Shown one piece after another: positions 13,158 through 31,438 of a DNA stretch of 64,000 nt (position 1 is its first letter; every line of letters begins with the position of its first letter). This DNA comes from a virus. Its lineage: Duplodnaviria > Caudoviricetes. A program made the translations under genes and the position numbers. The stretch is from the IMG/VR virus record IMGVR_UViG_3300037484_000235, positions 188,522 to 252,521 of that record. One strand, 5' to 3'. Below the pieces are notes generated by a model that worked only from the letters and a program-made list of their open reading frames with translations, did not search any database and had not been told where the DNA came from.

Positions 13158-14228
13158 TTATCGATTTGGATCGTAGGGTCTTCCGGATGGATCCGTGATG
13201 TAGAGGTCGTCATCCTCGGCATCTGTAATCCGGAATCCAGGATCTAACCCAAGGTCTTTTTCGACCGAAGCCTGCGTCTCAAGCATCTCCAATGCTTTGT
13301 TGATGGCGCGGGCAGCTGGAGGCATGCGGGAACCGCGCAGGGCGTACATGGACACCCTTCGGAGTAAGTTCGCGAAGGCGATGGCCTCATCCTCTGGGAA
13401 GCCAGAGTTCCGGCTTGCTACGACCAGTTCCTTGGCTGACTCAAGGATTTGGGTGGTGTAGAACGTCGTTCGCGAAGCGCGGCGTTGACCGTGAGGTGAA
13501 CTGTGTTCGTCTAGTTCACGCAGGACTTCCCAGGGTCGCTTGGGTGTCACGCGTGGATCGTGTGCGTCAAGTGCCAAGGCCGCCTTGTAGAGAAGGCTGG
13601 CAGCCCCACGATTGCCGCCGGACTTGGCGTAGGCCGCACAGGTCAAGAGTACCTGGTGGAAGGCTTCGTCAATGTCTTCCGTCGAGCTGCGGGCCCCATG
13701 GTGCGCGTCCAGAAGGTCTTGAACGTTGGCCTTGAGCAGAAGCGCCTTCGACGCCTGATTTGCCCGCTTGGCCACGGACGCCTTCTTGTCGTCCTTCTTG
13801 CCCTCTTCGACCTTCTTTTCGCAGTTGTCTCGCATCCCGCCCTCGGGAAGCTTCTCGCAACCGGCGGTCTTGTCAACATCCTTGGCCTTCTTGTCGCAAA
13901 CAGCGCAACGTCCAGAAGACACGTTTCCGAAGGCTCTCGCCTTTGAGACAGCGGACGGCTTGAACTTCTTGCCGCACAGGGCGACGTTGTTCACGACGTT
14001 GGATCCGTCCTCGAATACTGCGTTCTTGAAGGCGTGGGATTCTCCGTCACGTTGGTTGCCAGGACGCGCCCAGGCAACCTCGATTTTCTCCGGCGTCTCC
14101 CCGTGCATGACGGGTTCCCAGAATGGTGCTACCGCAGCTTCCTTGAGAAGGGGGAGCAAGTCAGCCCGGAGAGCCGGGTTCTGGTGGGCAAGGCGAATGA
14201 GGCGTGAGCGGAGGGCTTGGTCTGACAT
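13158..14228 (-). CDS. Leader-bearing modular protein (356 aa), candidate internal virion protein
   Basis: N-terminus MSDQALRSRLIRLAHQNPALRADLLPLLKEAA is shared with three other genes; SD AAGGTGG precedes the ATG; internal KTAG/KKAS/RRAS junctions. Confidence 0.75.
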   Translation of the reverse strand: MSDQALRSRLIRLAHQNPALRADLLPLLKEAAVAPFWEPVMHGETPEKIEVAWARPGNQRDGESHAFKNAVFEDGSNVVNNVALCGKKFKPSAVSKARAFGNVSSGRCAVCDKKAKDVDKTAGCEKLPEGGMRDNCEKKVEEGKKDDKKASVAKRANQASKALLLKANVQDLLDAHHGARSSTEDIDEAFHQVLLTCAAYAKSGGNRGAASLLYKAALALDAHDPRVTPKRPWEVLRELDEHSSPHGQRRASRTTFYTTQILESAKELVVASRNSGFPEDEAIAFANLLRRVSMYALRGSRMPPAARAINKALEMLETQASVEKDLGLDPGFRITDAEDDDLYITDPSGRPYDPNR

Positions 14229-14239
14229 ACCACCTTGGG

Positions 14240-14283
14240 CCTATCAAACGATTCACGGAATCGTATTTCATCGGTAGAGTCCC
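14240..14283. repeat. Intergenic elements repeated elsewhere: CCTATCAAACG (also 63567-63577); GATTCACGG and CGGTAGAGTCCC (also within 9711-9734)
   Basis: Exact 9-12-nt matches read directly from the sequence, all in divergent intergenic regions. Confidence 0.6.
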
Positions 14284-14311
14284 GGGCCAGCTACTGGCAG
14301 GAGACCCGATC

Positions 14312-14617
14312 ATGACGACAGAAAATACGACGAATGCGGATACCGAGGTCAAGGAAGTCAACAAGCTCTCCCCTGAGGAGGTTGCCCAGCTGACTCAGTT
14401 GCACCGTCAGGCGCAAGAAATTGTGCAACAGATCGGTCAGATTGAAGTCCGCAAGCACCGTATGATGGCTTCTCTCTCCGAGATTGAAGAGCATGCTCAG
14501 GGGATCATGAATGCTGCGGCCTCACGTCTGGGGATCGCTCCTGGCACCGCATGGCAAATGGCCCCGGACGGAACTGTGATCGTTCTGCCGAAGACTCCAG
14601 CAGCTCAGACGCACTAA
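14312..14617 (+). CDS. Small coiled-coil protein (101 aa), possible assembly chaperone
   Basis: SD AGGAG before ATG 14312; long amphipathic helix LTQLHRQAQEIVQQIGQIEVRKHRMMASLSEIE. Confidence 0.75.
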   Translation: MTTENTTNADTEVKEVNKLSPEEVAQLTQLHRQAQEIVQQIGQIEVRKHRMMASLSEIEEHAQGIMNAAASRLGIAPGTAWQMAPDGTVIVLPKTPAAQTH

Positions 14618-14648
14618 CCGAGCTATCATCTAGAGAAGGGGACGCATC

Positions 14649-16037
14649 ATGTGGACCCCCACAACATACCCCTTACCACCAATGAACGTCATGGTGGTCA
14701 GTCCCTTCGAGAGGGGTATGCTCGACGTGCGATGGGATGATCCCTCCCTTCTAGGGGGGAACTCACCATACAACGTCCTTGGGGTCAACGTCTACAGATC
14801 GGATTCGAGTGACAGAGGACCGTTCCGTAGGTTGAATTCCTATCCTGTGGGAGGGACGTTTTTCCGGGATTTCACGGATGTGGCCCTCGTCTCTAACGAG
14901 ATCATCTCTTGGGAGGCTGGGTGGCAATCTCGTGGGGATGCCCCAAACGTTCGACGATGGACTCTGCGGACACGGTACCCCATCTACAAGCCTCGGACTC
15001 AGGGAGTCGAGGCAAATGCACCCGCTGATGTGATCGTCACAATCAACGGCATACCCGCACGCATCCACGAGGTCTTTGGATCCTCTTGTGAGATCACACT
15101 TGGGGACGCTCCGGATATCGATCCGAGACCTGATCGCTTTGCATTTGCCCCACTTCCTACAGGAAGTGGGGATGCTGTCGTCGTCACATACTACACTCTG
15201 AAGAATCTTGTCTCCCCAGGCGTGGACAAGAAGTCGTACTACCGAGTGACAACGGTTGCAGTGGATGCCACACAGCCTGGCGGCCTTGCTGAAACTCCGA
15301 TGAACGTGTCCCAGCCAGCATCTGAGACACAGATTGAGCAGCTTGACTACATCTGGCGTGAGGCCATTAGGCGCAACCACTGGATTCTTCAACAGGGTGG
15401 GGAACGCGTTAGCCTGTTCTGTCAGAAGGTGTCTGGGGTCCCTTGCGAGTGCCGCGCAGAGATAGAGAACCACGTCCGGGTGTACTCAAAACAGCACTCA
15501 AACCGGTGCAAAATCTGTTTCGGCACTGGATTCGTTGGGGGTTTTGAAGGGCCATACAACGTCATCATGGCACCGGATGACGCTGAGAAGCGCATCTCTC
15601 AGTCACTGACTGGCCGTAGAAAGGAACACGCTTACGAGGTGTTCATGACGTTCACCCCCATTGTCTCCCAAAGGGACTTCGTGGTGAAGCAGAACAACGA
15701 TCGCTACTCGATCGGCCCTGTGCGTCGCCCCACAAATCGTGGGAACGTGATGCAGCAGCATTTCACTCTGGGGTACTTGGATTCTGGTGACATTCGGTAT
15801 TCGGTGCCGATCGATGGTTCTTTGGAGTCTCCAAATCTTCCATGGCCACAGACTCGCTACACATACAGTCCACCACGTGAGACGTATGATGCCCGTGAGG
15901 ATGCCCCGTGGCCAGTCACGCCTGATGCAGCGCTGCCAATGGCAACCGATGTGGCACTTGTTCCGGCTCCTGTCCAGCAGAGATACCGAACGGGAACTGG
16001 GGCAAACAACACTGGCAATAAGCCAAATGATCCATAG
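14649..16037 (+). CDS. Neck / head-tail connector-like structural protein (462 aa)
   Basis: N-terminal FN3-like strands (LDVRWD...GVNVYRS...FFRD), CxC...CxxC motif (CECR...CKICFGTG) and a head-closure-like C-terminal part; first gene of the neck operon. Confidence 0.65.
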   Translation: MWTPTTYPLPPMNVMVVSPFERGMLDVRWDDPSLLGGNSPYNVLGVNVYRSDSSDRGPFRRLNSYPVGGTFFRDFTDVALVSNEIISWEAGWQSRGDAPNVRRWTLRTRYPIYKPRTQGVEANAPADVIVTINGIPARIHEVFGSSCEITLGDAPDIDPRPDRFAFAPLPTGSGDAVVVTYYTLKNLVSPGVDKKSYYRVTTVAVDATQPGGLAETPMNVSQPASETQIEQLDYIWREAIRRNHWILQQGGERVSLFCQKVSGVPCECRAEIENHVRVYSKQHSNRCKICFGTGFVGGFEGPYNVIMAPDDAEKRISQSLTGRRKEHAYEVFMTFTPIVSQRDFVVKQNNDRYSIGPVRRPTNRGNVMQQHFTLGYLDSGDIRYSVPIDGSLESPNLPWPQTRYTYSPPRETYDAREDAPWPVTPDAALPMATDVALVPAPVQQRYRTGTGANNTGNKPNDP

Positions 16038-16049
16038 TAGGGGGAACAC

Positions 16050-16604
16050 ATGCCAGATGATGATGAGATCGTACCAGGTCCAATAGAGAACAGGGTAATC
16101 CGTGCCGGCAAGCTCATGGGCGCTGTTACTGGCATCCTTGTGGCTGTTGCAGCTGTGGTGTCTGGCATTTGGCAGGTAGGCAGCATGGTGAGCGATCTGA
16201 AGGACACCAAGACAGATTTGGAGTCCCTCAAGAAGTCGTTCAACGACTATCAAATTGAGGCACGAAAAGAGAACGAGATCCAGAAAGAGATTCTCGTCAA
16301 TCTCAGGATTGCTGTTGCCTCAATACAAACTGTCAATGGCTATCAGACCTCGGGCCACTCAACTATGGCCTCCATGCCTCCCATTTCGGCCTCTCGTATC
16401 CGTCAGGTTCTACCAAGAACATTGGGACCACTAGACGACAATCCTGAGTTTGCGTCTCTGATTCGGTCATTGCCCCCATTGCCCCCGGACCCCACCACAT
16501 CTGCTGTTGGCAATATGGATTCAAGTGACGTAATTCAGCATGAGTCGGATACGGCAGATGTGGCATTGCAGAGAGCTGAGATCCTTCAGGGTAGTCTCCA
16601 GTAA
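16050..16604 (+). CDS. Single-TM coiled-coil membrane protein (184 aa)
   Basis: Hydrophobic LMGAVTGILVAVAAVVSGIWQVG followed by a coiled coil; topology resembles an i-spanin or antiholin, but no partner o-spanin was found. Confidence 0.65.
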   Translation: MPDDDEIVPGPIENRVIRAGKLMGAVTGILVAVAAVVSGIWQVGSMVSDLKDTKTDLESLKKSFNDYQIEARKENEIQKEILVNLRIAVASIQTVNGYQTSGHSTMASMPPISASRIRQVLPRTLGPLDDNPEFASLIRSLPPLPPDPTTSAVGNMDSSDVIQHESDTADVALQRAEILQGSLQ

Positions 16605-17191
16605 TGGCGGGACCACCAAAGCCACCTGTCCAGTTAAAATCCTCTGTCCAGGCTACAAACAAGAAGGCTGCCACTAAGCTGCACAGCGGCCCAAAGCGAG
16701 TCATCCGGAGCCGTTACGTCTCTCCTCTGGAACGACGTGTCGGAGCCGTGCTCGACAAGTCCGATCTTCAGTTTTTCGGGCGCTGCCTCATCAAGTACAT
16801 CAAAGAGGAGGCAGCGAAGGATGCTGCGAAGACGCATCAGGTGCCTGTCACTGAGGAATTTTACAAGTCTTTCACTTACCAGGTGAAAGACAACACCATT
16901 GAGGTGTCTTCAAGTTGGCCGTGGATCGACCTGATTACCTTCGGAACAAGTGGCCCATACCCCATGAAATGGCTCACTCAAGCCAAGGGCGTCTACAAGG
17001 TGCCGTTGCGTGGTGAACATGGTGAACTGCTCATCCGCTCGACACCTCTTACGACGGACAAGGCGTGGATCCACCCTGGTATCTCTCGACATACGTTCAT
17101 CGAACGAGCGTTTCGTCGAGCGCGAGAGGATTGCGTCTCCAAGTTCCTCTCGAAGAACATTGGGAAGATCATGGGTGGGGTCCTCAAATGA
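16604..17191 (+). CDS. Neck / tail-completion protein (HK97 gp10-like, tentative)
   Basis: Basic 195-aa protein with WIHPG...TFIERAF C-terminal motif; coupled in the neck operon. Confidence 0.55.
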   Translation: MAGPPKPPVQLKSSVQATNKKAATKLHSGPKRVIRSRYVSPLERRVGAVLDKSDLQFFGRCLIKYIKEEAAKDAAKTHQVPVTEEFYKSFTYQVKDNTIEVSSSWPWIDLITFGTSGPYPMKWLTQAKGVYKVPLRGEHGELLIRSTPLTTDKAWIHPGISRHTFIERAFRRAREDCVSKFLSKNIGKIMGGVLK

Positions 17192-17820
17192 ACGAAGTCG
17201 AGTTGACTTGTGTTGGGGACACAGCCCACATCCCTGATTTAGGATTGAAGATGGTCCGAGGATCCCAGTCTTTCATCACCCTCACAGCTCTTGCCAACTC
17301 CCGCGATCTGGTTGAGGCTAGGAAATTCGGGCTTGTCACGGTGCGGGTGATCAAGGCTCAGGTAATCAAGAGGGGTTCACCCACCGTGTCAGTCAAACAC
17401 CCCAATAATCGCCAGACGATTTTTCTCCCAGCTTACCAACCGTCAACACCTGTGAATCCACCCCCCAACATTCCGGATCCACGGGACATACCCAATAACC
17501 AGATTGCCGAGTTGATCCGGGAGATTCGTGGTCTTCGGGGGGACATACAAAAACGCCCACAGGAAGTCCTGAGTGGGCAAATGGTAGGGGCCATCTCCGC
17601 AGCTATCCGAGATGCTCTACAGGGTCTCCAACTGGGTGCAATCTCTGGTTCTCAGGTGAGGGGGCCAATTGATCCTGAAGACATGTTCATTCCTAGTGGT
17701 ATCGTTACAGGAGTGAAGGCAGAGATCACAACACTGAATGAGACATCTGAGAGTACCTCTGGCCTGGACGATGCTCACAGCGCCTTGAAGAAGGCTCGAA
17801 GAGATCGCCAGGAACCATGA
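17188..17820 (+). CDS. Hypothetical protein (210 aa), candidate adaptor of the actin-like protein
   Basis: ATGA overlaps at both ends; N-terminal small domain, Pro-rich linker, short coiled coil (IAELIREIRGLRGDI), basic C-terminal helix. Confidence 0.75.
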   Translation: MNEVELTCVGDTAHIPDLGLKMVRGSQSFITLTALANSRDLVEARKFGLVTVRVIKAQVIKRGSPTVSVKHPNNRQTIFLPAYQPSTPVNPPPNIPDPRDIPNNQIAELIREIRGLRGDIQKRPQEVLSGQMVGAISAAIRDALQGLQLGAISGSQVRGPIDPEDMFIPSGIVTGVKAEITTLNETSESTSGLDDAHSALKKARRDRQEP

Positions 17821-18911
17821 CAGATATTGCCGTGACTACGCCTTTGGGCGTTGAGCAAACTGATATACTGACCCTGATGAAGGAGACGCCTGTGGCCAAG
17901 GACGAATCGACAAAGACTCAAGAATCCCGTGGTGTGGGGCTTGATTGCGGAACCATGAATCTAGTTTCTGCGCGCCGTACCCCAAAGGGAATCGAAACCC
18001 GAAGGATGCGGGACGCCTTCCTAGATCTTCCGAGCGAGTCAAAGAAGATGCTCAAGCTCTCTGGGGTGTCCTATGTGGACCGGGGAGATGAGATTCTCAT
18101 CCTCGGAGATGCAGCTCTTGACATGGCCAATGTTTTTGGCAGGGAGGCTCGTCGCCCGCTTTCCGGTGGCCTTGTCTCCGCAACGGAGTCAGATTCCCTG
18201 GAGGTGCTCGGTCTGCTTGTGCAGAACGTCCTGGGGGCACCTAAAGAGAAGGGTGAGCACTGTTACTTCTCTGTCCCGGCGGCTCCGATTGATGTGGTAG
18301 GACGGGATATTGTCTACCACAAGGGAATCTTCGACAGAATCGTGTCCGAGTGTGGGTACACACCGCACTCCGGAAACGAGGCCATGGCCGTGATCTATGC
18401 GGAGTCCGCCAAGGATGGGTTCTCTGGGGTGGCGCTATCTTTCGGGAGTGGAATGTCCAATGTGGCGCTATCGGTCGGGACGATTGAGGGACTCTCCTTT
18501 TCGGTTGGCCGTGGGGGCGACTGGATCGATTCTGGTGCGTCGAAATCTGTGGGGTCCACACAGGCTCGAATGTGTTCCACCAAGGAGAAGGGCTTTGACC
18601 TCAATATCCCGGAAAATCGGGACCAAGAGGCACTGGCCTTCTACTACAAGAACCTGATCGAGTACGTTTTGGATCAGATTGCTCTCCAGTTCAAGACGAT
18701 CGAAGGGAAGTTCTCGCTTCCCAAGCCTATTCCAATCATCGTCTCTGGGGGCACGTCACTTGCTGGAGGGTTCCTGGAGTTCTTCACGAAGGTATTTGAG
18801 AAGAAGCGCAAGAAGTTCCCTATCAATGTGAGTGAGATACGGGCTGCAAGTGACCCACTCAACGCCGTCGCACATGGCCTACTGATTCAGGCACTCCAGG
18901 AGTACGAGTGA
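17817..18911 (+). CDS. Actin-fold (ASKHA) ATPase, MreB/ParM/FtsA-like (364 aa)
   Basis: Phosphate-1 GVGLDCGT, connect-1 NEAMA, phosphate-2 variant SFGSGMSN, GRGGDWID, adenosine IIVSGGTS, connect-2 PLNAVAHG. Confidence 0.88.
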   Translation: MTDIAVTTPLGVEQTDILTLMKETPVAKDESTKTQESRGVGLDCGTMNLVSARRTPKGIETRRMRDAFLDLPSESKKMLKLSGVSYVDRGDEILILGDAALDMANVFGREARRPLSGGLVSATESDSLEVLGLLVQNVLGAPKEKGEHCYFSVPAAPIDVVGRDIVYHKGIFDRIVSECGYTPHSGNEAMAVIYAESAKDGFSGVALSFGSGMSNVALSVGTIEGLSFSVGRGGDWIDSGASKSVGSTQARMCSTKEKGFDLNIPENRDQEALAFYYKNLIEYVLDQIALQFKTIEGKFSLPKPIPIIVSGGTSLAGGFLEFFTKVFEKKRKKFPINVSEIRAASDPLNAVAHGLLIQALQEYE

Positions 18912-19720
18912 TGGTACGCGTAATGCGCGAGGTGCATATGGCAGAAAGGGCCTGTGCGGAGCTTTCAAAGGTGTGTCATCGATCCGGCGCCTCCGAACAG
19001 CCATGTTGGGGTCGAATAGAGCCACTCGCGGATCCTGATTGGAACGGTAGCAATGATGCCCTAAAGTTCGCTTGTAGGGCTCATCGGACTTCTCAGTACA
19101 AGGCAAAGTCTGGGATTGACCTGGATATGGACTACGCGGCGGCTCAGGCCTTGGGGATGGACCCCAGGATCGTGGGAGATGAGTCCCACTCCTTTGCTCC
19201 AACCTTCTCTGGCAGAGAAGAGCTTGCACGAATGCAGGGTACCATGGAGGTCCCAGAAGAAATTCAAAATGTATTTGACCTTCAAGAGGTGGTAGACGCC
19301 TCTTTAGCCCAACAGGAATGGGCCAGAAGGATGGTTGAGGGCAAAACGGGTCGGGTTGAGAACCTCTTTTATGTGCCACGCGTCAAGATATCCACAGAGG
19401 CCGTAGAAAACCTGACTGCCAAGATTCTAGAGTACTTGGCACAGATTGAAGTACTGAAGCATAGGATCAATCAGCATCGATGTGAGTTAGCTGGGTTCCC
19501 GCCAGAATTTGCTGTTGGCATGGGCGACCCTTGCCACAAGTACGAGCCTGAGCAGAACACACATCACTGTTTAGAGTCCGTCAACGGACCCGGTGACGTG
19601 ACCACTATCTGCTGGTGTGAGAGTGCCACAACACGAACCAGGCCCATTGATGTTGAAGCCTATGTGGTGACTCCCGGTAGATTCCGGGTACGCGAAACTC
19701 AGGATCAGACGAAAGACTAA
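18908..19720 (+). CDS. Hypothetical Cys/His-rich protein (270 aa)
   Basis: GTGA overlap with the actin stop; Cys/His clusters at both ends flank a coiled coil. Confidence 0.65.
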   Translation: MMVRVMREVHMAERACAELSKVCHRSGASEQPCWGRIEPLADPDWNGSNDALKFACRAHRTSQYKAKSGIDLDMDYAAAQALGMDPRIVGDESHSFAPTFSGREELARMQGTMEVPEEIQNVFDLQEVVDASLAQQEWARRMVEGKTGRVENLFYVPRVKISTEAVENLTAKILEYLAQIEVLKHRINQHRCELAGFPPEFAVGMGDPCHKYEPEQNTHHCLESVNGPGDVTTICWCESATTRTRPIDVEAYVVTPGRFRVRETQDQTKD

Positions 19721-19727
19721 TAGTTTC

Positions 19728-20849
19728 ATGTACTTCCACATGGCAGAGGCGACGCGCCGAAGACTCATCAAAGAGCTTCGAGCCTATTGGTCCTTGAACC
19801 CAAGGTACCAAGACCTCATTGACAACATCCAGGGGAAATACTCGTTCCAAGAGAGGCCCCAGTACGGGATCATTGTCAAGATGGGTTCCGCCTCAAAGGT
19901 CCAGTTCTCCGCTGACAATCTCATGGGGACGATTCAGAGTTACGTGACATTGGCTAGGATTCCAGGGTACTCGGGACTGTCTGTTGAGTGGGTTAGGGAG
20001 GATGCCTATGCCATCCAGGGCAATGGTGGGGTCTTCCCGTCGCAAGCTGGCGTCTATTACTGTGAAATGTCCTCTGCGGATGAATTCTACGTAGACCCAT
20101 TGCTCGACGTACGTGATGAGCGGGTCACGATGACTACCAATTCAGAGGGCATCCTTCAAGGTGTCCCATTCTCCGAAAGCTTGCGTCTCTTTGAGGTGCC
20201 TGGCGGCCGACTCCTTCAGCTCGGTACAGACTACTCAGTGGATGCAGACGGTGTTACAATCTACTTGGCAGTGCCGCTGGCCAATGGGCAGGCCCTCTCA
20301 GCGGACTACCGTGTAGCAGGGACAACGACTGGGCCATGGAAGGTAGAGGCACAGGCGGGGCTTCACAAGATCATCCCCGGAGTCGTGATGGTCTTTGGGC
20401 GGAACTATGTACAAGGTGATCGTTGGGCTATTCTCGTTTCTTCGATTCGGGAGCCTGCATACATGGAGTACGGCGGGAAGTGGGAGATTGGTGTAGACAT
20501 CGACATCATAGCTAGGGACGTTAATTCCCAGGCAGAGATTGCAGATCAGACGGCGATGTTCCTGTGGGCCATCTTGCGACCGAACGTCATCGATGAGGGG
20601 ATTGATATCCAGGATGTGTCCATGGGCGGGGAGTCTGAAGAAATATACGACGAGAACGGGGACGACTACTTCTACAATGCGTCAATTTCCCTAACAATTC
20701 AGGCGGATTGGTTCCTTCATGTTCCGATCCTACCGAGAATTCTATCCTACCAGGAGGATATCAAGGGGCTTCCGAGGGAGCTGTCGCTCTCTCCGTTCAG
20801 AGACCCATTCTTCGCATTGAAGTCGGAACACTTCGAAAAGATCTTGTGA
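19728..20849 (+). CDS. Tail terminator / tail-completion-like protein (373 aa)
   Basis: Lies between neck and sheath genes; C-terminal IDIIARD...AEIADQ...IQDVSMGGESE...SISLTIQADW pattern fits tail-completion folds. Confidence 0.6.
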   Translation: MYFHMAEATRRRLIKELRAYWSLNPRYQDLIDNIQGKYSFQERPQYGIIVKMGSASKVQFSADNLMGTIQSYVTLARIPGYSGLSVEWVREDAYAIQGNGGVFPSQAGVYYCEMSSADEFYVDPLLDVRDERVTMTTNSEGILQGVPFSESLRLFEVPGGRLLQLGTDYSVDADGVTIYLAVPLANGQALSADYRVAGTTTGPWKVEAQAGLHKIIPGVVMVFGRNYVQGDRWAILVSSIREPAYMEYGGKWEIGVDIDIIARDVNSQAEIADQTAMFLWAILRPNVIDEGIDIQDVSMGGESEEIYDENGDDYFYNASISLTIQADWFLHVPILPRILSYQEDIKGLPRELSLSPFRDPFFALKSEHFEKIL

Positions 20850-20894
20850 TCCGTTGGCCCCTCTATACCTATCCCTTGTTGAAGAGAGGCCACC

Positions 20895-21371
20895 ATTCCT
20901 GTTTTCAGATACCAGTGCGACTGCGGATTGAACTTCTCGACTCGTGTCGCTTCGGCAGCGAGTCCGGTGAAGTGCTCCTGCGGGTCATTGGCGAAACAAG
21001 ATCTCCCCCGATCTTTTTCGGTGGGCACGTCTGTTCCTACGAATGGACTCTCTGCCCCATCAACAGGCCTATCGTCACATGACTATGTGTTTGACAAGGT
21101 TGTGGGAGAAGATGCCAAGGGCAAGTGGGACAAGATTGCGGCCCGCCACAAGGACAAGGTTCGGCTTCTTGAGCAGACTGGGGCCACAGGATTCGATCTC
21201 ACCAAGCAGCATGACGGTTCCTACGCCATCATGACCCCCCAGCAGCGGGCTGCCTCTGAACGGACACGGGCATTCCACTTCAAGATGGATGCTGCGGGTC
21301 CGGCTCAAGCCCGAAAGAAGCAGATTGAGGCAACAAGTTTGGTCCCTAAGGATCACAAAAGCCATGTCTGA
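20895..21371 (+). CDS. FmdB-like zinc-ribbon protein (158 aa), probable ATT start
   Basis: In-frame extension upstream of the track start gives (M)PVFRYQCDCGLNF...CSCG, the FmdB-type N-terminus. An in-frame TGA lies at 20880 and no ATG/GTG/TTG occurs before 20928. Confidence 0.75.
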   Translation: MPVFRYQCDCGLNFSTRVASAASPVKCSCGSLAKQDLPRSFSVGTSVPTNGLSAPSTGLSSHDYVFDKVVGEDAKGKWDKIAARHKDKVRLLEQTGATGFDLTKQHDGSYAIMTPQQRAASERTRAFHFKMDAAGPAQARKKQIEATSLVPKDHKSHV

Positions 21372-22053
21372 ACTTCGAAGTAAGCTCATTCGTTTGGCCA
21401 ACTCTAACCCAGAGTTGCGATCCACATTGCTACCTTTGCTGAAGGAGGGCGCCGCCGAGAAGACCGGGTCCTCTGTCACCTATGCGATGGCTGTGAGGGA
21501 CGCTTCTCTGGAGTTGATTGGAGCGTCAAGAGGAAGTGATGTTACAGACGAGGGGCAGATGCTCATTCTGCTTCTTGCTGCATGCTCCACATTCGTCAAG
21601 AAGGGCAGGATTGGAAGCAATCAGACCGCTATCCTCATCAAAAGGGCAGCCGACTCGTTGTACAAGGAGATGTTCGGGGAGAGTCCTGATGCGGTGTCAC
21701 CAGTTGTTGCCGCTCCGACCCCCAGGGATCTGTTCTTTGGTTCGGGCAAGCTAAGTGGGTATGCCCTAGAAGTCATCCGTGGGATGCAGATGTTGGATGG
21801 TGACATCCACACCAAAGGCAAAGTAAATCCCAATGGCTCGGTGGAGTTCATGCATGGTGGTGTCTACGGCACAGTTCTGGTTGAGATGGGATTGTCCAAT
21901 GATGCCCGTGCGTGGGTATCTGTGTACACGACTGGGCGTCGGCCCGCTTCCATCATGTTTCCCTCAACCTTCGATGTGAAGAGCGTGGCTGGGTCAAAGT
22001 TTCCCAGGATGCTCCTGAACAAGCTCTCTGACCTGAGTGCTTGGGCTGAGTAA
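21364..22053 (+). CDS. Leader-bearing modular protein (229 aa), candidate internal virion protein
   Basis: True start is likely ATG 21364: MSELRSKLIRLANSNPELRSTLLPLLKEGAA. Confidence 0.75.
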   Translation: MSELRSKLIRLANSNPELRSTLLPLLKEGAAEKTGSSVTYAMAVRDASLELIGASRGSDVTDEGQMLILLLAACSTFVKKGRIGSNQTAILIKRAADSLYKEMFGESPDAVSPVVAAPTPRDLFFGSGKLSGYALEVIRGMQMLDGDIHTKGKVNPNGSVEFMHGGVYGTVLVEMGLSNDARAWVSVYTTGRRPASIMFPSTFDVKSVAGSKFPRMLLNKLSDLSAWAE

Positions 22054-22121
22054 GATTTCCCTCCCGGTGCCTTAGGGCCCCGTGGTCCACAAACATACCT
22101 AACATCCTGCGCTTTCATTTT

Positions 22122-22141
22122 CTCTCCTTTATTTAGGAGAG
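22122..22141 (+). promoter_or_regulatory. Hairpin CTCTCCT-TTATTT-AGGAGAG upstream of the sheath gene
   Basis: Perfect 7-bp inverted repeat in the intergenic spacer; function unknown. Confidence 0.35.
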
Positions 22142-22178
22142 GTTGATTCACATCAGTTCTCTCAGGAGCGCGCGAACC

Positions 22179-25100
22179 ATGCCAAGTCTTCTCCGTGGCG
22201 GATACACTCCCCCAGGTGTTTACACCCAGACCACTTTCGGAGTCCCACCGACCCCGACTCCGATTCCAGCTCGTATTCCCGTGTTCGTCGGGACGGGCAC
22301 TGAGATCCTCTCTCGGTCGAGTCTCCCTGTCGTGCGTGGCAGTTCCAGCACCATTGACCAACAGGTCGTGGACGAGGATGAGGCTGGTCGTGGCGTAGTT
22401 AGCGTCACCTCAGGTGGCCTTGTCACTCTTGGGGACTTCGATGGCCTGCTCACGAAGTTCCAGGTCCGCAACCTTCCCATCGTCTCTGGCGATGGGACTG
22501 GCACCGTTGCGGTCGATACCAGCGCAGTCTCGTGCAAGATCAACGGATTCCCCGTTGTGGTTCTTGGACTTGACGCAGCCGAGGGCATCGTCGAGCTGTC
22601 GGTAGCACCAGTGTCTACGGACGTGGTCCTCTGCACTTACTTCTTCGACCGCACAGACACTCTGACGACGGATGACGTGTCGGATCAGGTCACTGCTGAG
22701 GCGGCGATCATCGATGGCCTTGCGGGACAGAGCTTCGCGTTCGCACTTGCCGCGAACGACGTTTTCTCCCTCTCGGTAGATGGATTGGCGTTCGTGAACA
22801 TCACGATGCCCTCGTCCGCCCCATCGGTGAGCGGCGCAGTGGTAGCAGCAACCATCAACGGCACCGCAGGAATTGGCTCTCTCGTCGCCACGACCTACGT
22901 CAACAACCTTGCTCAGACTTGCATCCGGCTTACGGCCGACAAGTCCATCACCATTGGAACGGGCACGGCGAATACAACCCTTGGGTTCACGCCTGGTGCA
23001 ACGACCTCTCGCAATCGTGTGTTCTACACGTTCCAGGGTCCGATCGTCGATGGTTTCGGCGGCGGTACCACAACGACGGACCCTTCGTTGGTTGTTGTCC
23101 TTGTGGACAGCGTCCAGGTCATCCCAACAGCGGTCAATGGGTCGTCCCGGTCGATCACCTTGCCCTACGCTCCGGCAGTGGGCTCTACGGTTACGGTCCG
23201 CTACTACTTTAACACCTGGCAGGACACGTTCGATTACCTTGCCAACATCGGTGTGACGGAGATCACACGCGCAGCCCTCACCCCTGACGGAAGCGTTGCG
23301 GGCACATACGTCCAGGGTGTGTCATACGTTCTCAAGGACGACGTGATCGTGTGGGGCACAGCGGCCCTCGTTTCCTCTGACGTGCATACAGAGGGTGGGA
23401 CGACTCTAGGCACCTCGCAAATCCAAGCGATGTTGGTAGACAACCAGGTCTACCTTGCCCCCTGCGCAACGACCGTGGACAGCACAGGCCCAGTCTCGGT
23501 TGCAAGTCGTACGGTCTTCCAGCTTCCATACCAGCCCACGACGGGTAATGGACGGGGTAATCCCCTGGGTTCGACGCTGTACGCGTCTGTCGCCAACGGG
23601 CGGATGGATCTCCCAACGAATCGCCCCGACCTCATCACAGCCTACTGGGGCTTCGGCGTTCAGGATGCAGTGGATCGTGGCGCGGTTGCGGTCCTCAAGG
23701 TGGACAGCGAGACTTCGCAGATCACACTCGGTTCGAGTGTGCCTGAAGGTGCAAGCGTCTACGCCTCGTTCTACTACAACACGCTTGTGGACATGGCGAA
23801 CATCGGTTCGAGCCACGCATACACACTAACGTGTGTGACGCCTGGACCTGGCGGAATCGGAACGTATTCCATCGCTGATGGTGAGGGAGTCCTGCTTTTC
23901 GGGGCGAGCCTTACAGCCAAGGGAAGCGACCTCACGACCGTAGACGTGATGTTCCCTTCGGGCTCCGAGTTCTTCCCAGACGCGCATGTCTCGGGCGGGG
24001 CGCCTGTCGAGGAGACTGTCACAGTCCAGTTCGCTACGTCGGACGTGACACCTGCTCGGTTCACGAACCTCGGACCTGGCCCGTACTACATGATCGACAA
24101 CACCTCGGATCGTCTCCGGGTGACGTTCGATGCGGCGGCACAGCAGACGGGTCTTGCGGCTGGTATGGACCTCTCCGCCCCAACGCTGGGCACACGCGCC
24201 GGTGCATTCGCCTCTCTTCTGGGTGAAGAGATTGCGTACACAGCGGCCTCCGGTGAAACCACCTACGACCTCACCTCCGGTGTGGATGATGCCCTCGATC
24301 TCATCGTAGACGGTGTGCCCCTGACCGTAGCAGTCGGTACTGCCCCAGGTACAACGGCTGCGGGCTTTGTTACGGCCATCAACGCAGCGGCCGTCGCTGC
24401 GGGCAATGAGCCCTACTACGACACCGCGGGTACGTTCACGAGCTTCATTGTCACGGTGAACGAGTACGACCAGCTTCGTCTTCACTACACGGGTGGCACC
24501 AACGGTGCGTCCGGTGTTGAGACGATCACCATCACCCCTGGTACCTACGCATCTCTCGGTGCGCTTGTTACCGAGATCAATGCGCAGCTTGCGCTGATCA
24601 ACGGTCTGTCCAGCACCGCTCTGTTCGGTTGGGTGACGGCTTCGGCTCTCTCTTCCGGCAAGATCCGATTCACTCTCGAAATCGGAAAGGGTATGGATAC
24701 CCTGACCTTCGGTGGTATCCCAATCGCGGGTGAGACTGTTACGATCAATGCCAAGATCTATACGTTCCGAGCGGTCATCAACGGAGCATCTGTAGACGGT
24801 GATGTCCTCATCGGAACGGCGAGCGGTTCGCTCGACAACCTGATTGCAGCCATCAATCTCGGTGCAGGCTCAGGCGTCACCTACGCAGCGGCAATGACTC
24901 TTCACCCCACGGTGTCTGCGGTTGCGGGCGCAGGCGTCACGATGATCGCATACGCCAAGGCAGTTGGAACTGCGGGCAACGCAATCACCGATGCAACCAA
25001 CGTTACACTTGGTGCATGGACGAACGCAGCTCCCGCTGGATTCTTTGCGGGTGGCGATGACACGGGTTACCTGGAGTTCATCGCAAACGCCACACCAGCT

Positions 25101-27506
25101 CGGGACTTCGCGATCATCGCGGGTATTGACACTGGCACGGCAATCAGCCTCAACCAGACCAAGATCTACAATGGTCCAATCGCTCGCCGCTTCACTGTGG
25201 CTACGACAGCGGGCCGCTTGCCCTACGACCGGATCATCCTCCGCAATCGTCTCTTCCCAGGTGGGGCTTCGCTGTCTTACGTACCTACCCTTGCACAGAC
25301 TGGAATCACCCTTCAGGGTGGGACCGGTGCAACCAAGGCCGGGCTTCTCAATGGGGAGACGGCTGAGGCTGTGTTCGGGGCAAACGTCAAGAATCCTACC
25401 ATTGTCGCCCTCACGGGATGGGCTGGCGGACAGGTAGCAACGGCTACCTACGGTGACGCACGGGACGGCCAGGCAAATGTCACCTTCTACGATGGGACGG
25501 ACCCTGCCAATCCTGCCAACAACCTCATGACTTTCACCGCCGGTGGAAGTCTCGTGACGGTGACCTTCACGGCTTCGGCCTTGGGTACGGCTACGGCACT
25601 AGGCCCCGTCACTGTCGCGGGCTCTGTGCTTGGTCAGATCAACGCGGCCATCGTGGCTGCAAGCCTCACAGCGGTCGTCTCTGTCCAACAGGAGGGTGCG
25701 GCCATCCGCCTTGTTGGCGGCGGCGTCGGCCCCGCAGCAACCCTGGTCATCGGGGCAGGAAGCGCGAACGACACACTCGGATTTGTCGAGGACGACTCGG
25801 CAGCTCCGGTTCCAGTCTCCACCCGCCAGCTTGCTTCGGCACTCATGGGTGCCAGCCAGTCGAGCGCAAACTTCACTGTCGCGATGCTCAGCTACTCGGC
25901 ACCGGACGCAGCGTACTTCGCAGGTCGAGCCCTCGCCGGAATCAAGGTGGACTCGACGGGCAACGTCTACCTCTACCTCCAGAGCCTGACCCTGGGCACT
26001 GCGTCGAGCATCGACTTCGGAGACGCAACCTCGAACAACGCCCTGGTGACAGGGACCTTGCTCCTCATCACGTCGGCGGACGGATCGTCTGGCGAGGCAG
26101 CCATCAACGGCTACTTCGTGACCAGCTCGAATCCCGGGCTGGGCTCGGGTTCGGCCGATACCTCGGTGTTCAACTCGGGTACGGGCCAAGACGGTGTGGT
26201 TGGACAGACGTATGTCGATGACGTGTCTGGCTTGACCTTCACCATTCTGCCTCGCTCGGGTGGCATTGCCTACCCAGTTGGTGTGAATGCCACGCTCAAC
26301 TTCCGTGTGAGCAAGACGTTCACGACGGATGGCAACATCCCCACTCTCGCAATCCCCGGAGTCGAACTCACGGTCACGAACACATCGGGTGTGGTCGCGC
26401 TGGACTCGGCCTTCGTGGAGACCTTCAAGAAGACGGGAGACGAGCCTACCAATGGGCAGATCTACTACGTCAGCTACAACTACGCGAAGCAGGACTTCAC
26501 CCCAAAGTTCTTCTCTCGCCTCTCGGAAGTCGTCACTGAGTACGGGCCTGTCAGCCCTGACAACCCGCTCTCTCTGGCAGCCCACATCGCCTTCCTAGGC
26601 GGTTCGTCTGTCATCGCTACCTATCAGGTGCTCAAGACGACTGGGTCGTCTCAGGCGAGCGAGCAGGCGTACTTGGATGCGCTTGTAGCTCTTGAGGGCA
26701 GCTCACTCCCAGGGAACATCATCCCAACAGTGCTGGTCCTTCTGACTCCAGCCACAGCAAACCTAGCGAAGCAGACAGCCATCCACTGCGACGTGCAGAG
26801 CAGCATCCGCTACCGTGCGGAGCGTACCGCGGTCTTCGGTTTCGCTTCGGGCACCCAGCCTTCCCAGGTTGGCACAATCTCCCAGGCAACAGGATCGACA
26901 CGTGTTCGGTTTGTCTACCCAGACATCTGGACAATCACGATCACCGATGTACTTGGAACCTCCAAGGCATATCTCGTGGATGGTCGCTACATGGCAGCCT
27001 CCGTGGCAGCCTCCACGACCGCACCCTCTATCGACTCTGCAACTCCATGGACTGGTCGGCTTCTCCCAGGCTGGACTGCCAGTGGGCGGTCTCTGGACGC
27101 TGTGGAGGCAAATCAGGTCGCGTCCAAGGGCGTGACCGTGATCGAAGAGAAGTTGCCGAACATGCGGATTCGGCATGGCCTCACGTCAGACATGACCAAT
27201 GTCCTGACGAAGATCCCAACGGTCATTCAGATCGCTGATGACATGCAGCGTCGTGCACGCGCAGTGCTCGACCAGTTCGTGGGTGTCAAGTTCCTCCCAC
27301 AGATCCTCGGACAGATCGAGGGACAGCTGAGCGAGATGTTCAAGCGCGCCGTGCAGGAACAGATCATCACGAGCTTCACGGGTATCAGCGTGGTTCTCGA
27401 CCCTGAGGATCCCACTGCCACTCTGGTAGAAGCCTTCTACCTCCCCGTCTTCCCTCTTTTGTATCTCCAGCTAAACTTCAGGGTGTCTTCACAGTCGAAC
27501 ATTTGA
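22179..27506 (+). CDS. Contractile tail sheath protein, unusually large (1775 aa)
   Basis: N-terminal GGYTPPGVYT and sheath C-terminal domain (RIRHGLT...QIADDMQRRARAVLDQFVG...YLPVFPLLYLQLNF). SD AGGAG favours ATG 22179 over TTG 22143. Confidence 0.9.
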   Translation: MPSLLRGGYTPPGVYTQTTFGVPPTPTPIPARIPVFVGTGTEILSRSSLPVVRGSSSTIDQQVVDEDEAGRGVVSVTSGGLVTLGDFDGLLTKFQVRNLPIVSGDGTGTVAVDTSAVSCKINGFPVVVLGLDAAEGIVELSVAPVSTDVVLCTYFFDRTDTLTTDDVSDQVTAEAAIIDGLAGQSFAFALAANDVFSLSVDGLAFVNITMPSSAPSVSGAVVAATINGTAGIGSLVATTYVNNLAQTCIRLTADKSITIGTGTANTTLGFTPGATTSRNRVFYTFQGPIVDGFGGGTTTTDPSLVVVLVDSVQVIPTAVNGSSRSITLPYAPAVGSTVTVRYYFNTWQDTFDYLANIGVTEITRAALTPDGSVAGTYVQGVSYVLKDDVIVWGTAALVSSDVHTEGGTTLGTSQIQAMLVDNQVYLAPCATTVDSTGPVSVASRTVFQLPYQPTTGNGRGNPLGSTLYASVANGRMDLPTNRPDLITAYWGFGVQDAVDRGAVAVLKVDSETSQITLGSSVPEGASVYASFYYNTLVDMANIGSSHAYTLTCVTPGPGGIGTYSIADGEGVLLFGASLTAKGSDLTTVDVMFPSGSEFFPDAHVSGGAPVEETVTVQFATSDVTPARFTNLGPGPYYMIDNTSDRLRVTFDAAAQQTGLAAGMDLSAPTLGTRAGAFASLLGEEIAYTAASGETTYDLTSGVDDALDLIVDGVPLTVAVGTAPGTTAAGFVTAINAAAVAAGNEPYYDTAGTFTSFIVTVNEYDQLRLHYTGGTNGASGVETITITPGTYASLGALVTEINAQLALINGLSSTALFGWVTASALSSGKIRFTLEIGKGMDTLTFGGIPIAGETVTINAKIYTFRAVINGASVDGDVLIGTASGSLDNLIAAINLGAGSGVTYAAAMTLHPTVSAVAGAGVTMIAYAKAVGTAGNAITDATNVTLGAWTNAAPAGFFAGGDDTGYLEFIANATPARDFAIIAGIDTGTAISLNQTKIYNGPIARRFTVATTAGRLPYDRIILRNRLFPGGASLSYVPTLAQTGITLQGGTGATKAGLLNGETAEAVFGANVKNPTIVALTGWAGGQVATATYGDARDGQANVTFYDGTDPANPANNLMTFTAGGSLVTVTFTASALGTATALGPVTVAGSVLGQINAAIVAASLTAVVSVQQEGAAIRLVGGGVGPAATLVIGAGSANDTLGFVEDDSAAPVPVSTRQLASALMGASQSSANFTVAMLSYSAPDAAYFAGRALAGIKVDSTGNVYLYLQSLTLGTASSIDFGDATSNNALVTGTLLLITSADGSSGEAAINGYFVTSSNPGLGSGSADTSVFNSGTGQDGVVGQTYVDDVSGLTFTILPRSGGIAYPVGVNATLNFRVSKTFTTDGNIPTLAIPGVELTVTNTSGVVALDSAFVETFKKTGDEPTNGQIYYVSYNYAKQDFTPKFFSRLSEVVTEYGPVSPDNPLSLAAHIAFLGGSSVIATYQVLKTTGSSQASEQAYLDALVALEGSSLPGNIIPTVLVLLTPATANLAKQTAIHCDVQSSIRYRAERTAVFGFASGTQPSQVGTISQATGSTRVRFVYPDIWTITITDVLGTSKAYLVDGRYMAASVAASTTAPSIDSATPWTGRLLPGWTASGRSLDAVEANQVASKGVTVIEEKLPNMRIRHGLTSDMTNVLTKIPTVIQIADDMQRRARAVLDQFVGVKFLPQILGQIEGQLSEMFKRAVQEQIITSFTGISVVLDPEDPTATLVEAFYLPVFPLLYLQLNFRVSSQSNI

Positions 27507-27532
27507 CCTGTGTAGGGACCGGATGAAAGCTG

Positions 27533-27578
27533 AACTAGAGCGGAGTCGGGGACAAAATCCTCAGGCTCCGTTCTAGTT
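27533..27578 (+). other. Long stem-loop downstream of the sheath gene
   Basis: AACTAGAGCGGAG pairs with CTCCGTTCTAGTT (one G-U), plus an inner GGGGA/TCCTC stem; weak U-tract. Confidence 0.55.
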
Positions 27579-27609
27579 TCTAGCCTATCTCACACGTCTG
27601 GAAAGAGCT

Positions 27610-28857
27610 ATGTCCAATCCACTCTCCAAACTCGTCCGGTTGGCACAGTCAAATCCAGAGCTTGCCACCATCTTGAAGCCAGAGCCATTGGCTTCTCGGG
27701 TTGCGGACGCAGCTAGGAAGGCGGGGATGCTGGGCCGCACTTCTCTTGAGGCATTCGTCTTCAAGAGGTTTCCGCCTGACAACAAGATGAAGGGTGGGGG
27801 GCGGCTGATGGTGATGCTTACGGGCAACACCGCAACAGCAGTTGGTGTCCCCAACTACACCACTAGGTACTTGGACCAGCTTGACGACGATCAGCTCAAG
27901 GCCCTCGTGGATGCGGTAGATCCTCACGGACATGGTTATCGCCTGGCGGGCTACGGGCGAGGCTACGGATCGTCCTACAAGGGTGACCCCAGGTGGATGG
28001 AAGCCAAGTACCCTGGCGTGGACTCCAAAGGCAACTCTTTCCGTAAGGGAGAGGAAGTCCTCTACTGGCCTTCGACAAAGACCTTCATGACGGGCCCTGA
28101 AGCCAAGGCGGCTTGGCAGAAGTTCCTGTCCGAGAAGGGCGACGAAGAGGGCAATCCATACGCTCGTGCGGCTTCTGCTAAGCGGGTTGTTGCCACTTTT
28201 CTTCCCACATGTTCGGATGGCACCCCCGCAGAGTATGATGATGGGTTAGACGCTTATGCGTGTCCATCGACTGGGGAGGTTGGACCAAACGGACCTGCCT
28301 ACCAAAAGTGTGCGGCTCACGGTGCGGTTTCTGTCAGGCGGGTAGCGGGGGAAATTGACCACTCAATCGCTCGCCGACAGGCAGCATTGGTGTTGAAGGG
28401 GCTCAGGCCCTCTACTCGTGCAGGAGTTCTCAAGGAACTTCTTGCAAGGATCACGGGGGATGCTGTCCTCATGGATTATCTCTACCGGGAGACCGTCTCT
28501 GGTTCCTACGCAGGTAAAGACGGCAAGCTGAATTACCACATGATGGGGGACCTGTTTGGGGGGCCCGTCGCACAGTGGAAAGAGCGCAATGAGATTGAGG
28601 ACAATCCCGCCTATGAAGAGTTGTCTCTTGACCCCAAGCTTGCAGCAGGAATTGAGAAGGCACTCAAAACCTACCGCCCACAGAACCCAACTATCTCCAA
28701 GGTTGACTCCATCGACTTTGATAGTGTGAGGATGAAAATCCGCTTCGATCTGACAGACAAGATCAAGCGCCTTCAGGCCGGAAACAGCACGGACCCCGCT
28801 GGAGACGCAGCGGAAATCGCCCGCATCTTCGAAGAACTAGCAAGGATGTTCAAGTGA
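27610..28857 (+). CDS. Leader-bearing modular protein (415 aa), candidate internal virion protein
   Basis: N-terminus MSNPLSKLVRLAQSNPELATILK; modules bounded by RKAG, RLAG, RAAS and RVAG. Confidence 0.75.
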   Translation: MSNPLSKLVRLAQSNPELATILKPEPLASRVADAARKAGMLGRTSLEAFVFKRFPPDNKMKGGGRLMVMLTGNTATAVGVPNYTTRYLDQLDDDQLKALVDAVDPHGHGYRLAGYGRGYGSSYKGDPRWMEAKYPGVDSKGNSFRKGEEVLYWPSTKTFMTGPEAKAAWQKFLSEKGDEEGNPYARAASAKRVVATFLPTCSDGTPAEYDDGLDAYACPSTGEVGPNGPAYQKCAAHGAVSVRRVAGEIDHSIARRQAALVLKGLRPSTRAGVLKELLARITGDAVLMDYLYRETVSGSYAGKDGKLNYHMMGDLFGGPVAQWKERNEIEDNPAYEELSLDPKLAAGIEKALKTYRPQNPTISKVDSIDFDSVRMKIRFDLTDKIKRLQAGNSTDPAGDAAEIARIFEELARMFK

Positions 28858-29162
28858 CTACTCTCCGCAACAAAGTCATCCGCCTCGCTCATGCCAAGCC
28901 TGAGCTTCGGGCTCAGTTGCTTCCTTTGCTCAAGGAAGCTGCCTATACCTATGAGAGCTACTCGAAGGGGCTCAATCTTCGTGGTGAGATCCGCAAGCTA
29001 GAGGCACTCGCTAGCACCCCCTTGGAAGCTTACCTCCCCAGCGAAGACTCACTCATGGACAAGCCCGGCGGGTACGACAAGGAGTTTCGTAAGCTGAAGA
29101 CCCAGTTGGAAAAGATCATCGCTCTTCGAGAGCAGTATGCGAAGGACGCCGGAAACCTCTGA
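28854..29162 (+). CDS. Leader-bearing small protein (102 aa)
   Basis: GTGA overlap; MTTLRNKVIRLAHAKPELRAQLLPLLKEAA followed by about 70 aa of helix. Confidence 0.8.
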   Translation: MTTLRNKVIRLAHAKPELRAQLLPLLKEAAYTYESYSKGLNLRGEIRKLEALASTPLEAYLPSEDSLMDKPGGYDKEFRKLKTQLEKIIALREQYAKDAGNL

Positions 29163-30625: not shown

Positions 30626-31438
30626 ATGGCTAATCAAGATTTGCATCCCGCTAACGGTACCGCTGGTTCCAGCTACTTGTATGATTTTGGAACCTCTCCG
30701 AACACGCGGGTAGCTGTCTCCCAGAAGGTGCGTCTCCTTGCCCCAGCCTATGGCTCGGGAACAAAGGCACTCTTTCAGATGGGTGTTGTCTCTTCGTTCA
30801 GTCCCAGCCAGAGCCGCAACATCGATACGGTGCGTGGCATTGGCTTTGGAGACATGATCGCAGAGCTGGTGCCCTCCGTGACGGAACCCGTCACAGGCAG
30901 CATCGAGCGAGCGCTCCTGTATCTTGCAAATCTCTGGCAGGCGACTGGCTACGCAGGCGGCGTAGATGGTCCCGTGCGTTCGTTGGCCCATCATCGTTGG
31001 CCCTTCGACATTGAGCACCAGCTTGTGTTCTCATCCCTTGCGGACTCGGACCTTGGTTTTGCGAACGTCGGGCACTCCGGTGCGGAGAGGAATTTCGGCG
31101 GCGGCGTCCAGAAGGTTTCCTACCCTCAGGTCAGCATCCCCAACCCGGCGCCTCCCACCTATGGTGGTTCGCAGGGCCACTCGGCCGTCATCACGATGTA
31201 TGAGGCGGCTTGGTTCACGAGCTGGTCGGCGACCTACACGCAGGATGCGGGTCAGATCATGGAGTCCGGAGACGTAACTGTCTCGGATGTACATGATTTC
31301 TCTAGCCTTTACGGCGAATTCCTTCCGAGCGGGAACGATCCTTCCGTCGACCAACTAGGGTCGATTCGTTTCGGCGGGGCTGCCGAAATTGGTACGGCTA
31401 CTGGCGCAGGCGCAGTGGGTGGTACTGGAATTCGCTGA
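30626..31438 (+). CDS. Major tail tube protein (270 aa)
   Basis: Follows the sheath; tube-type pattern GVVSSFSPSQSRNIDTVRGIGFGD...ELVP, WPFDI, YEAAWFTSWSATY..D...IMESGDV. Confidence 0.85.
   Translation: MANQDLHPANGTAGSSYLYDFGTSPNTRVAVSQKVRLLAPAYGSGTKALFQMGVVSSFSPSQSRNIDTVRGIGFGDMIAELVPSVTEPVTGSIERALLYLANLWQATGYAGGVDGPVRSLAHHRWPFDIEHQLVFSSLADSDLGFANVGHSGAERNFGGGVQKVSYPQVSIPNPAPPTYGGSQGHSAVITMYEAAWFTSWSATYTQDAGQIMESGDVTVSDVHDFSSLYGEFLPSGNDPSVDQLGSIRFGGAAEIGTATGAGAVGGTGIR

Follow-up and report, generated by a model that had tools for sequence, protein, structure and literature searches.

Shared targeting peptides on phage proteins are already known from T4 and P1 (PMC9024508). As summarised there, the capsid-targeting sequence (CTS) of T4 is a short peptide common to the unrelated internal proteins IPI–III and Alt (Mullaney & Black 1996, in PMC9024508), it can be moved to other cargo and is removed by the head protease. 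In P1, the first 30 N-terminal residues of DarB suffice to send a reporter into the head (PMC9024508), and in P22 the scaffold's C-terminal helix-turn-helix (residues 268–303) binds coat protein on the inner surface of the HK97-fold shell and has served for loading foreign cargo (PMC9962691). Here we describe a peptide of 23–28 residues, hereafter the tag, which four proteins share in a 64-kb stretch of DNA (the window), the last 64 kb of one 252,521-bp IMG/VR virus contig (IMGVR_UViG_3300037484_000235), and which recurs throughout this contig, in related phages and in metagenomes. A portable module kept by selection and flanked by a motif that also stands at conserved places in the head protease and the scaffold-like protein, the tag is very probably a module for docking, by which unrelated proteins are brought to one shared partner. 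What is new in comparison with T4 and P1 is its independence of position, its multivalency, its junction motif and its scale. The samples that hold these contigs come from soil and groundwater.

Like the T4 CTS, the tag is a short peptide on unrelated proteins of one phage, but the two have no sequence similarity. The T4 CTS has ~10 residues, is strictly N-terminal and undergoes gp21-type removal after Glu ([LI]-x-Glu) by Peptidase_S77; the tag occurs at any position and in several copies, its flank has Ala before the presumed cut, and the contig has no Peptidase_S77 match. The P1 DarB signal is of similar length (~30 residues), but it is known from one protein and its packaging was shown by experiment, whereas the tag is on dozens of proteins and known from sequence. 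The P22 element (~35 residues, with important basic residues) is also similar in size, and an AlphaFold2 (AF2) model together with residue conservation gives the tag a two-helix hairpin with conserved basic residues as well. However, the P22 element lies in the scaffold itself, whereas the scaffold-like proteins of this phage and four relatives lack the tag; their conserved C-terminus is a different motif, DLSKLWESAPDVS, and the tag is not located at the scaffold C-terminus.

Four tagged proteins in the window

The first-pass annotation of the window reported four near-identical N-termini, and the open reading frames (ORFs) concerned do begin with these peptides. The tag copies and the proteins that bear them are given below with window positions, lengths in amino acids (aa) and hidden Markov model (HMM) scores.

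14133–14228, minus strand: tag copy 1, residues 1–32 (MSDQALRSRLIRLAHQNPALRADLLPLLKEAA) of a 356-aa protein, HMM 60.9 bits
13158–14228, minus strand: tagged protein 1, 356 aa, function of the body unassigned
21364–21456, plus strand: tag copy 2, residues 1–31 of a 229-aa protein, HMM 64.8 bits
21364–22053, plus strand: tagged protein 2, 229 aa, body without detectable relatives
27610–27693, plus strand: tag copy 3, residues 1–28 of a 415-aa protein, degenerate second helix, HMM 48.1 bits
27610–28857, plus strand: tagged protein 3, 415 aa, function of the body unassigned
28854–28943, plus strand: tag copy 4, residues 1–30 of a 102-aa protein, HMM 61.7 bits
28854–29162, plus strand: tagged protein 4, 102 aa, GTG start overlapping the preceding stop

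Aligned with each other, the four leaders have nine invariant columns and a mean column identity of 61%. Three are near the consensus, while in the 27610 copy the second helix is degenerate, with ELATILKPEPLA in place of ELRxxLLPLLK; no fifth copy was found within the window. The start of tagged protein 2 was set at 21364 rather than at an upstream ATG (21289) because MS-x-LRS is conserved. Automatic annotation misses the 28854 copy because the true GTG start overlaps the upstream stop, and the public gene call for 28854–29162, of 78 aa, begins inside the tag.

Pairwise BLAST detected no significant similarity between the four window proteins beyond the leader. Searches of Pfam, PHROGs and NCBIfam gave no convincing match for the four window bodies and four of the seven other tagged proteins of the genome, the bodies of the 27610 and 21364 proteins had no neighbours in the Atlas, and a homologue search with the 102-aa protein recovered only itself and one fragment. 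Across all tagged proteins of the genome, similarity in pairwise BLAST is mostly limited to the first ~30 residues, apart from three cases. A tagged protein at genome 24856 is a paralogue of the 13158 protein over ~190 residues (E 3e-25), the 28854 protein has a 42%-identical, 99-aa paralogue directly after the portal gene (genome 152515), and the 13158 protein shares a 21-residue module with two other tagged proteins. The first-pass description of the bodies as unrelated therefore stands within the window but has to be qualified genome-wide, where some are paralogous (24856, 152515) or share a 21-residue module. Its further point, that the tag sits on different bodies independently of operon context, was borne out.

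Copies across the genome and selection on the peptide

The first-pass annotation had envisaged a leader HMM for searching the whole genome and metagenomes. Run with all filters off against a six-frame translation of the whole contig, an HMM of the four leaders detected 11 tag copies (E 1.6e-18 to 6.4e-8), with the next match at E 0.48. Seven lie outside the window, at genome 24.1, 24.8, 72.0, 93.9, 95.7, 152.5 and 168.9 kb. In ten of the 11 the tag is at the N-terminus; the eleventh stands inside a 416-aa ORF, at residue ~207, and immediately follows KKAG. Over the 23-residue core the genome copies have a mean identity of 66% at the amino-acid level and 60% at the nucleotide level, and 68% of identical core residues are encoded by different codons. 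Selection therefore acts on the peptide and the copies are old, in agreement with the earlier statement that synonymous sites have diverged.

A second, shorter module accompanies the tag:

13797–13859 of the window, minus strand: mini-module CEKLPEGGMRDNCEKKVEEGK in tagged protein 1, with KTAG before and KKAS after, three genome copies

The other two copies are at genome 25201–25263 (+) and 72148–72210 (+), and all three are in tagged proteins. The module has 21 residues with two Cys ten residues apart, and its copies are 100% identical as protein and 84–89% identical as DNA, every difference being synonymous. K-[TE]-A-G stands before it and K-K-A-[ST] after it, and it accompanies the tag in relatives too, along with a third motif, EPYMKGxFTQ. 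A promoter search of the upstream 7-mers of tag genes found none convincingly over-represented. An exact TCTAG[GC]CTAT lies 14–21 nt upstream of two tagged genes (window 27579–27588 and genome 152491–152500, the latter before the paralogue that follows the portal gene), and TCTAGSCTAT is not above chance in the window.

The tag in metagenomes and related phages

An 11-sequence profile was searched against 1.84 billion representative proteins, with cut-offs of E ≤ 1e-3 and E ≤ 1e-10, and the tag was detected in 3,390 representatives at the former and 498 at the latter. Because scores are additive, the best 150 of the 3,390 favour proteins with several copies. Of the 316 copies in these 150 proteins, 109 stand at the N-terminus, 166 are internal and 41 lie at the very C-terminal end; 27 of the proteins are tagged at both ends, so the element is not the dedicated N-terminal leader that the first-pass annotation took it to be. 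Most of the best hits bear 2–6 tags with acidic or Lys/Glu-rich low-complexity linkers between them, and tandem tags can be as close as 6–11 residues. Tag-only proteins of 63–123 aa also occur, for example a 63-aa tag-linker-tag protein and an 86-aa protein consisting of tag-CEKLPEG-linker-tag. C-terminal copies end right after LLPLL[K/N/Q].

The core of the tag reads L-R-x-x-[LV]-I-R-L-A-[HY]-x-x-P-E-L-R-x-x-L-L-P-L-L-K. In 93 full-length copies L1, A9, R16 and L23 are invariant, P13 and P21 are conserved at 99%, R2 at 96% and R7 at 80%. The AF2 model of the natural 63-aa tag-linker-tag protein shows helix-kink-helix twice (helices 6–16/18–29 and 37–50/52–62), with a mean predicted local distance difference test (pLDDT) of 72 and a predicted template modelling score (pTM) of 0.50; a Foldseek search of this two-tag model against PDB returned nothing at E ≤ 0.001. 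The tag matches no Pfam, PHROG or NCBIfam family, which upholds the view that it is not a known standalone domain, and the motif is not described in the literature searched by fixed string nor in broad jumbo-phage surveys.

Only about ten of 116 tagged proteins have a Pfam domain, including RelA/SpoT (2), pentapeptide repeats, WGR, leucine-rich-repeat variant (LRV), TFIIS-like and bactofilin domains. PHROG matches of tagged proteins were all to families of unknown function, and no single family gathers the tags. The tag is nearly confined to viral contigs. We located 56 tag loci on IMG/VR contigs of up to 485 kb, and five related records carry 6–17 copies each. Among GenBank phages, tblastn found the tag only in one uncultured 485-kb phage. 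When 185,579 genomes of bacteria and archaea were scanned by pattern, the tag turned up on one contig, RGPS01000530.1 (1,349 bp), in a Terriglobia (Acidobacteriota) metagenome-assembled genome; either this contig is a phage fragment that was binned wrongly or it points to the host group.

A flanking motif recurs in the head protease and scaffold

The residues around the tag are themselves patterned. LLPLL is most often followed by K, [K/E], A, [A/G], and internal tags are most often preceded by K, x, A, [S/A]. The motif [KR]-x-A-[SAG] occurs at most 7 residues upstream of 94 of 203 tags (46%) and downstream of 79 of 279 (28%), compared with 1.5% of 48,373 control windows from the same proteins. 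A KEA|A-type end had been proposed for the leader; a recurrent K-x-A-[A/G/S] motif is indeed present, but it is broader, lies on both sides of the tag, and has Glu before the proposed cut in only 6 of the 11 local copies and 24% of related tags.

The candidate enzyme is encoded at genome 158327–159844 and was assigned by a match to the PHROG “head maturation protease” (E 2e-14); it has no PDB sequence match. Its catalytic part spans approximately residues 100–260 and is followed by a variable, indel-rich linker containing one conserved island, K/R295-A296-A297-S298, where in 30 homologues K/R is found in 30, A296 in 27, A297 in 30 and S in 15. The scaffold-like protein has G[KR]xA[SN] in a conserved N-terminal block (5 of 5 relatives) and PQPRxAS ahead of its conserved C-terminal tail (4 of 5). 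A short conserved motif in the protease linker and towards the scaffold ends has the appearance of a maturation site, as judged from sequence. Maturation sites of herpesvirus assemblin are cut between Ala and Ser, and in the phage proteins an A|S-type pair (x-A-[S/A]) is likewise conserved within the linker of the protease and close to the C-terminus of the scaffold. The likeness is one of motif placement, and the fold class of the protease is known here only from the PHROG match. A protease junction beside the tag is plausible because the same motif is conserved in the head protease linker and the scaffold, and the [KR]-x-A-[SAG] junctions are reasonable candidate cut sites. The first-pass annotation had a T4-type prohead protease removing the leader; this part is not supported, as a search of the contig (57% completeness) for Peptidase_S77 (PF03420) found nothing at E ≤ 1.

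Two candidate signals in the head proteins were set aside. Processing of the capsid protein at LKTA|S was rejected, since the N-terminal LKTAS reads IKTPAG in a relative and is not conserved. The string [LIVM]IRLA occurs 12 times in the proteome against 0.4 expected, nine times in tags and once in the C-terminal helix of the protease, where EA[RK]TLIRLA[KS]LL (residues 470–490) is conserved in 120 homologues; [LM]IRLA is also found near the C-termini of the proteins at genome 144144–146303 (residue 659) and window 51240–52040 (residue 244). The shared LIRLA was dropped as evidence after an HMM of helix 1 from 140 tags matched neither protease nor scaffold at E ≤ 25.

Proposed role of the tag

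The tag is best explained as a self-contained module of ~23–28 residues with two short helices, a kink at the proline, a conserved hydrophobic face and conserved Arg, His and Lys, which a clade of uncultured huge phages grafts onto many unrelated, fast-evolving accessory proteins. Most likely it would bind one conserved, phage-encoded receptor and so gather the tagged proteins in one place. If the capsid-targeting peptides of T4 and P1 and the P22 scaffold helix-turn-helix are taken as guides, the likeliest such place is inside the head during its assembly, where the maturation protease would cut after Ala at the bracketing [KR]-x-A-[SAG] and free the cargo from its tag; cleavage on both flanks would work wherever the tag sits in the chain. 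This fuller model, with the partner inside the prohead, flanks cut by the head protease and a tag position that does not matter, we hold with rather less than even confidence. The 292-aa capsid protein (genome 162035–162913) would be a suitably constant receptor for a conserved tag because its identity across the clade is at least 88% in the best 120 of 2,073 hits; that of the head protease is only 43–77%. The likeness of the tag to the coat-binding element of P22 in size, shape and basic character would likewise fit a capsid receptor.

Linkage to head genes is found in one genome. In a complete 437-kb relative with a divergent tag variant, 13 of 17 tags lie at most 16 kb from the capsid and protease genes, and this is the only one of six genomes in which tag genes are close to head genes.

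Several observations weigh against a role in the head. In the genome under study 2 of 11 tag genes are within 10 kb of the protease-capsid pair (~1.1 expected), and the corresponding counts in four relatives are 2 of 11, 1 of 12, 0 of 6 and 0 of 10, roughly what chance would give. The tag is absent from all of 120 protease homologues, 5 scaffolds and the capsid protein, and no tag partner was identified. Two multi-tag, Lys/Glu-rich proteins of ~1,000 aa in relatives adjoin thymidine- and deoxynucleoside-kinase genes, a 1,780-aa protein combining GNAT and tags lies 6 kb upstream of a terminase gene, and none of these multi-tag giants is at the scaffold position. The known domains on tagged bodies (RelA/SpoT, pentapeptide repeats, WGR, GNAT, bactofilin) are not those of known head proteins, and a search for cultured members of the clade found none. 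Processing of the capsid protein at K-x-A lacks support because LKTAS is not conserved and the capsid family profile aligns already from residue 10. The junction motif could also be helix capping instead of a cut site, as capping too would favour Ser and Ala at helix starts. Co-folding of the capsid protein with the tag, run without controls, scored 0.00, below the mark, and counts neither for nor against binding. The first-pass claim that the tag loads cargo into the head is thus unsupported as stated, there being five of six genomes in which tag genes are not enriched around the head genes.

The main rival to the head model is an action outside the capsid. The tag could be a multivalent association module, a single alpha-alpha repeat unit resembling an LRV unit, that stacks on other tags or on a repeat-protein hub and thereby links tagged enzymes and long, charged multi-tag proteins in the cytoplasm, for example in a condensate or in a factory for replication or assembly. 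We regard this as possible, if doubtful. Proteins with several tags on charged low-complexity linkers and tag-only mini-proteins fit it well, as do the dispersal of tag genes over the genome and the giants that adjoin nucleotide-metabolism genes. Tandem tags spaced by 6–11 residues resemble solenoid repeats, and are similar to LRV repeats (PF01816/PF25591), which are ~24–28-residue units of the form [VI]R-x-A-x-A-x-NP...LL..L. However, the Pfam LRV_2 score for three tandem tags of a relative (25.6 bits) is just below the cut-off of 27, single tags have no LRV match, this genome has none at E ≤ 10, and the empty Foldseek search of the two-tag model lends no further support. Association alone would also leave unexplained the enriched [KR]-x-A-[SAG] flanks and their recurrence in the protease and scaffold.

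It is decidedly unlikely that the tag is a mini-domain with no addressing role, that is, a regulatory, nucleic-acid-binding or chaperone/protease-recognition element kept by a paralogous family with diverging bodies. Some bodies are paralogous (E 3e-25; the 42%-identical pair), adjacent tagged pairs (24.1/24.8 kb, 93.9/95.0 kb and window 27610/28854) are arranged as after tandem duplication, and the conserved Arg, His and Lys could contact an acidic ligand or nucleic acid. Yet the tag is found on proteins with different domains, at both termini and between domains, and recombines with other mini-modules; because tag position, partner domains and mini-modules all vary, domain shuffling is indicated rather than one diverging family. 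Tag-only proteins with acidic linkers are, moreover, unlikely nucleic-acid binders. It is highly unlikely that the tag is a strictly N-terminal leader like the T4 CTS, cut off at KE|A or KEA|A and marking proteins that are packed and then ejected: although 10 of 11 genome copies are N-terminal, L-K-E conforms to the [LI]-x-E rule of T4 in 6 of 11 and T4 and P1 offer precedents (PMC9024508), internal and C-terminal copies outnumber N-terminal ones in the best 150 of 3,390 hits, C-terminal tags stop at LLPLL[KNQ] and so leave nothing to cut, the genome gave no Peptidase_S77 match and Glu is found in 24% of related tags.

Taken furthest, the docking model becomes a modular peptide code. Docking tags, mini-modules such as CEKLPEGGMRDNCEKK and [KR]-x-A-[SAG] punctuation would be read by an assemblin-like protease, and in each genome dozens of fast-changing proteins, a few of which resemble polyproteins, would dock in the prohead, be cut after Ala and be delivered with the DNA. 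We consider this rather unlikely; were it true, the phages would possess a programmable system for protein delivery of natural origin, on a far larger scale than in T4 or P1. The receptor, head location and cleavage, like any delivery into the host, are what we infer from the observations above. If the tag is an address label, it marks a class of huge-phage proteins that act together, most of them without known function (~6–17 proteins per genome and thousands in metagenomes), and would offer a handle of one peptide and one receptor for experiments on phages not yet in culture. A tag usable at either end and bracketed by defined cut sites would also be useful for cargo loading of phage-derived capsids. 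As a multivalent assembly module it would instead hint that huge-phage infection has an intracellular organisation yet to be recognised. In both cases the module is under strong selection and occurs widely.

Gene setting of the tagged proteins

The contig has 56% G+C and a CheckV completeness of 57%. Its head genes are at genome 148–163 kb, comprising terminase, portal, head maturation protease, an acidic scaffold-like protein and the HK97-fold capsid protein, while the window itself looks like a tail module. One large ORF of the window has tagged genes on either side:

22143–27506, plus strand: probable tail sheath, 1787 aa, with large insertions; Atlas neighbours with Phage_sheath_1/1C, scores 0.88–0.93

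This ORF has a PGVY motif at its N-terminus and lies upstream of a probable tape-measure gene; it has no match to Pfam models or PDB sequences. Its identity as a sheath, drawn from protein-language-model neighbours, the PGVY motif and gene position, is a lead. The earlier statement that three tagged genes flank the sheath is accordingly right as to their positions around the 1787-aa ORF, but the sheath itself is at the level of a lead.

Other large genes share the window. A 3,764-aa ORF (window 3–7850, +), reaching upstream to genome 185077, precedes the tagged-gene region, and further giant ORFs encode 1,689, 1,905 and 1,339 aa. Within the structural gene block, window 17817–18911 (+) encodes a 364-aa actin-like protein (Pfam Volactin, PF25216, E 2.6e-67). 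Two mobile-endonuclease-like genes interrupt the tail module, one for a ROS/MucR zinc-finger and HNH-like protein (window 29169–30455, −) and one for a GIY-YIG/NUMOD3 protein (window 31438–32199, +).

In the head module, the gap between portal and protease (genome 153591–156965) holds a gene for a 1124-aa protein in which a HAD (Swiss-Army-Knife RNA repair) domain is combined with a eukaryotic-type topoisomerase IB (TopoIB) core. It looks like a polyvalent, possibly packaged enzyme, and in relatives the TopoIB core is kept at the same head-module position while the partner domain is exchanged for a poly(A) polymerase or a 2'-5' RNA ligase.

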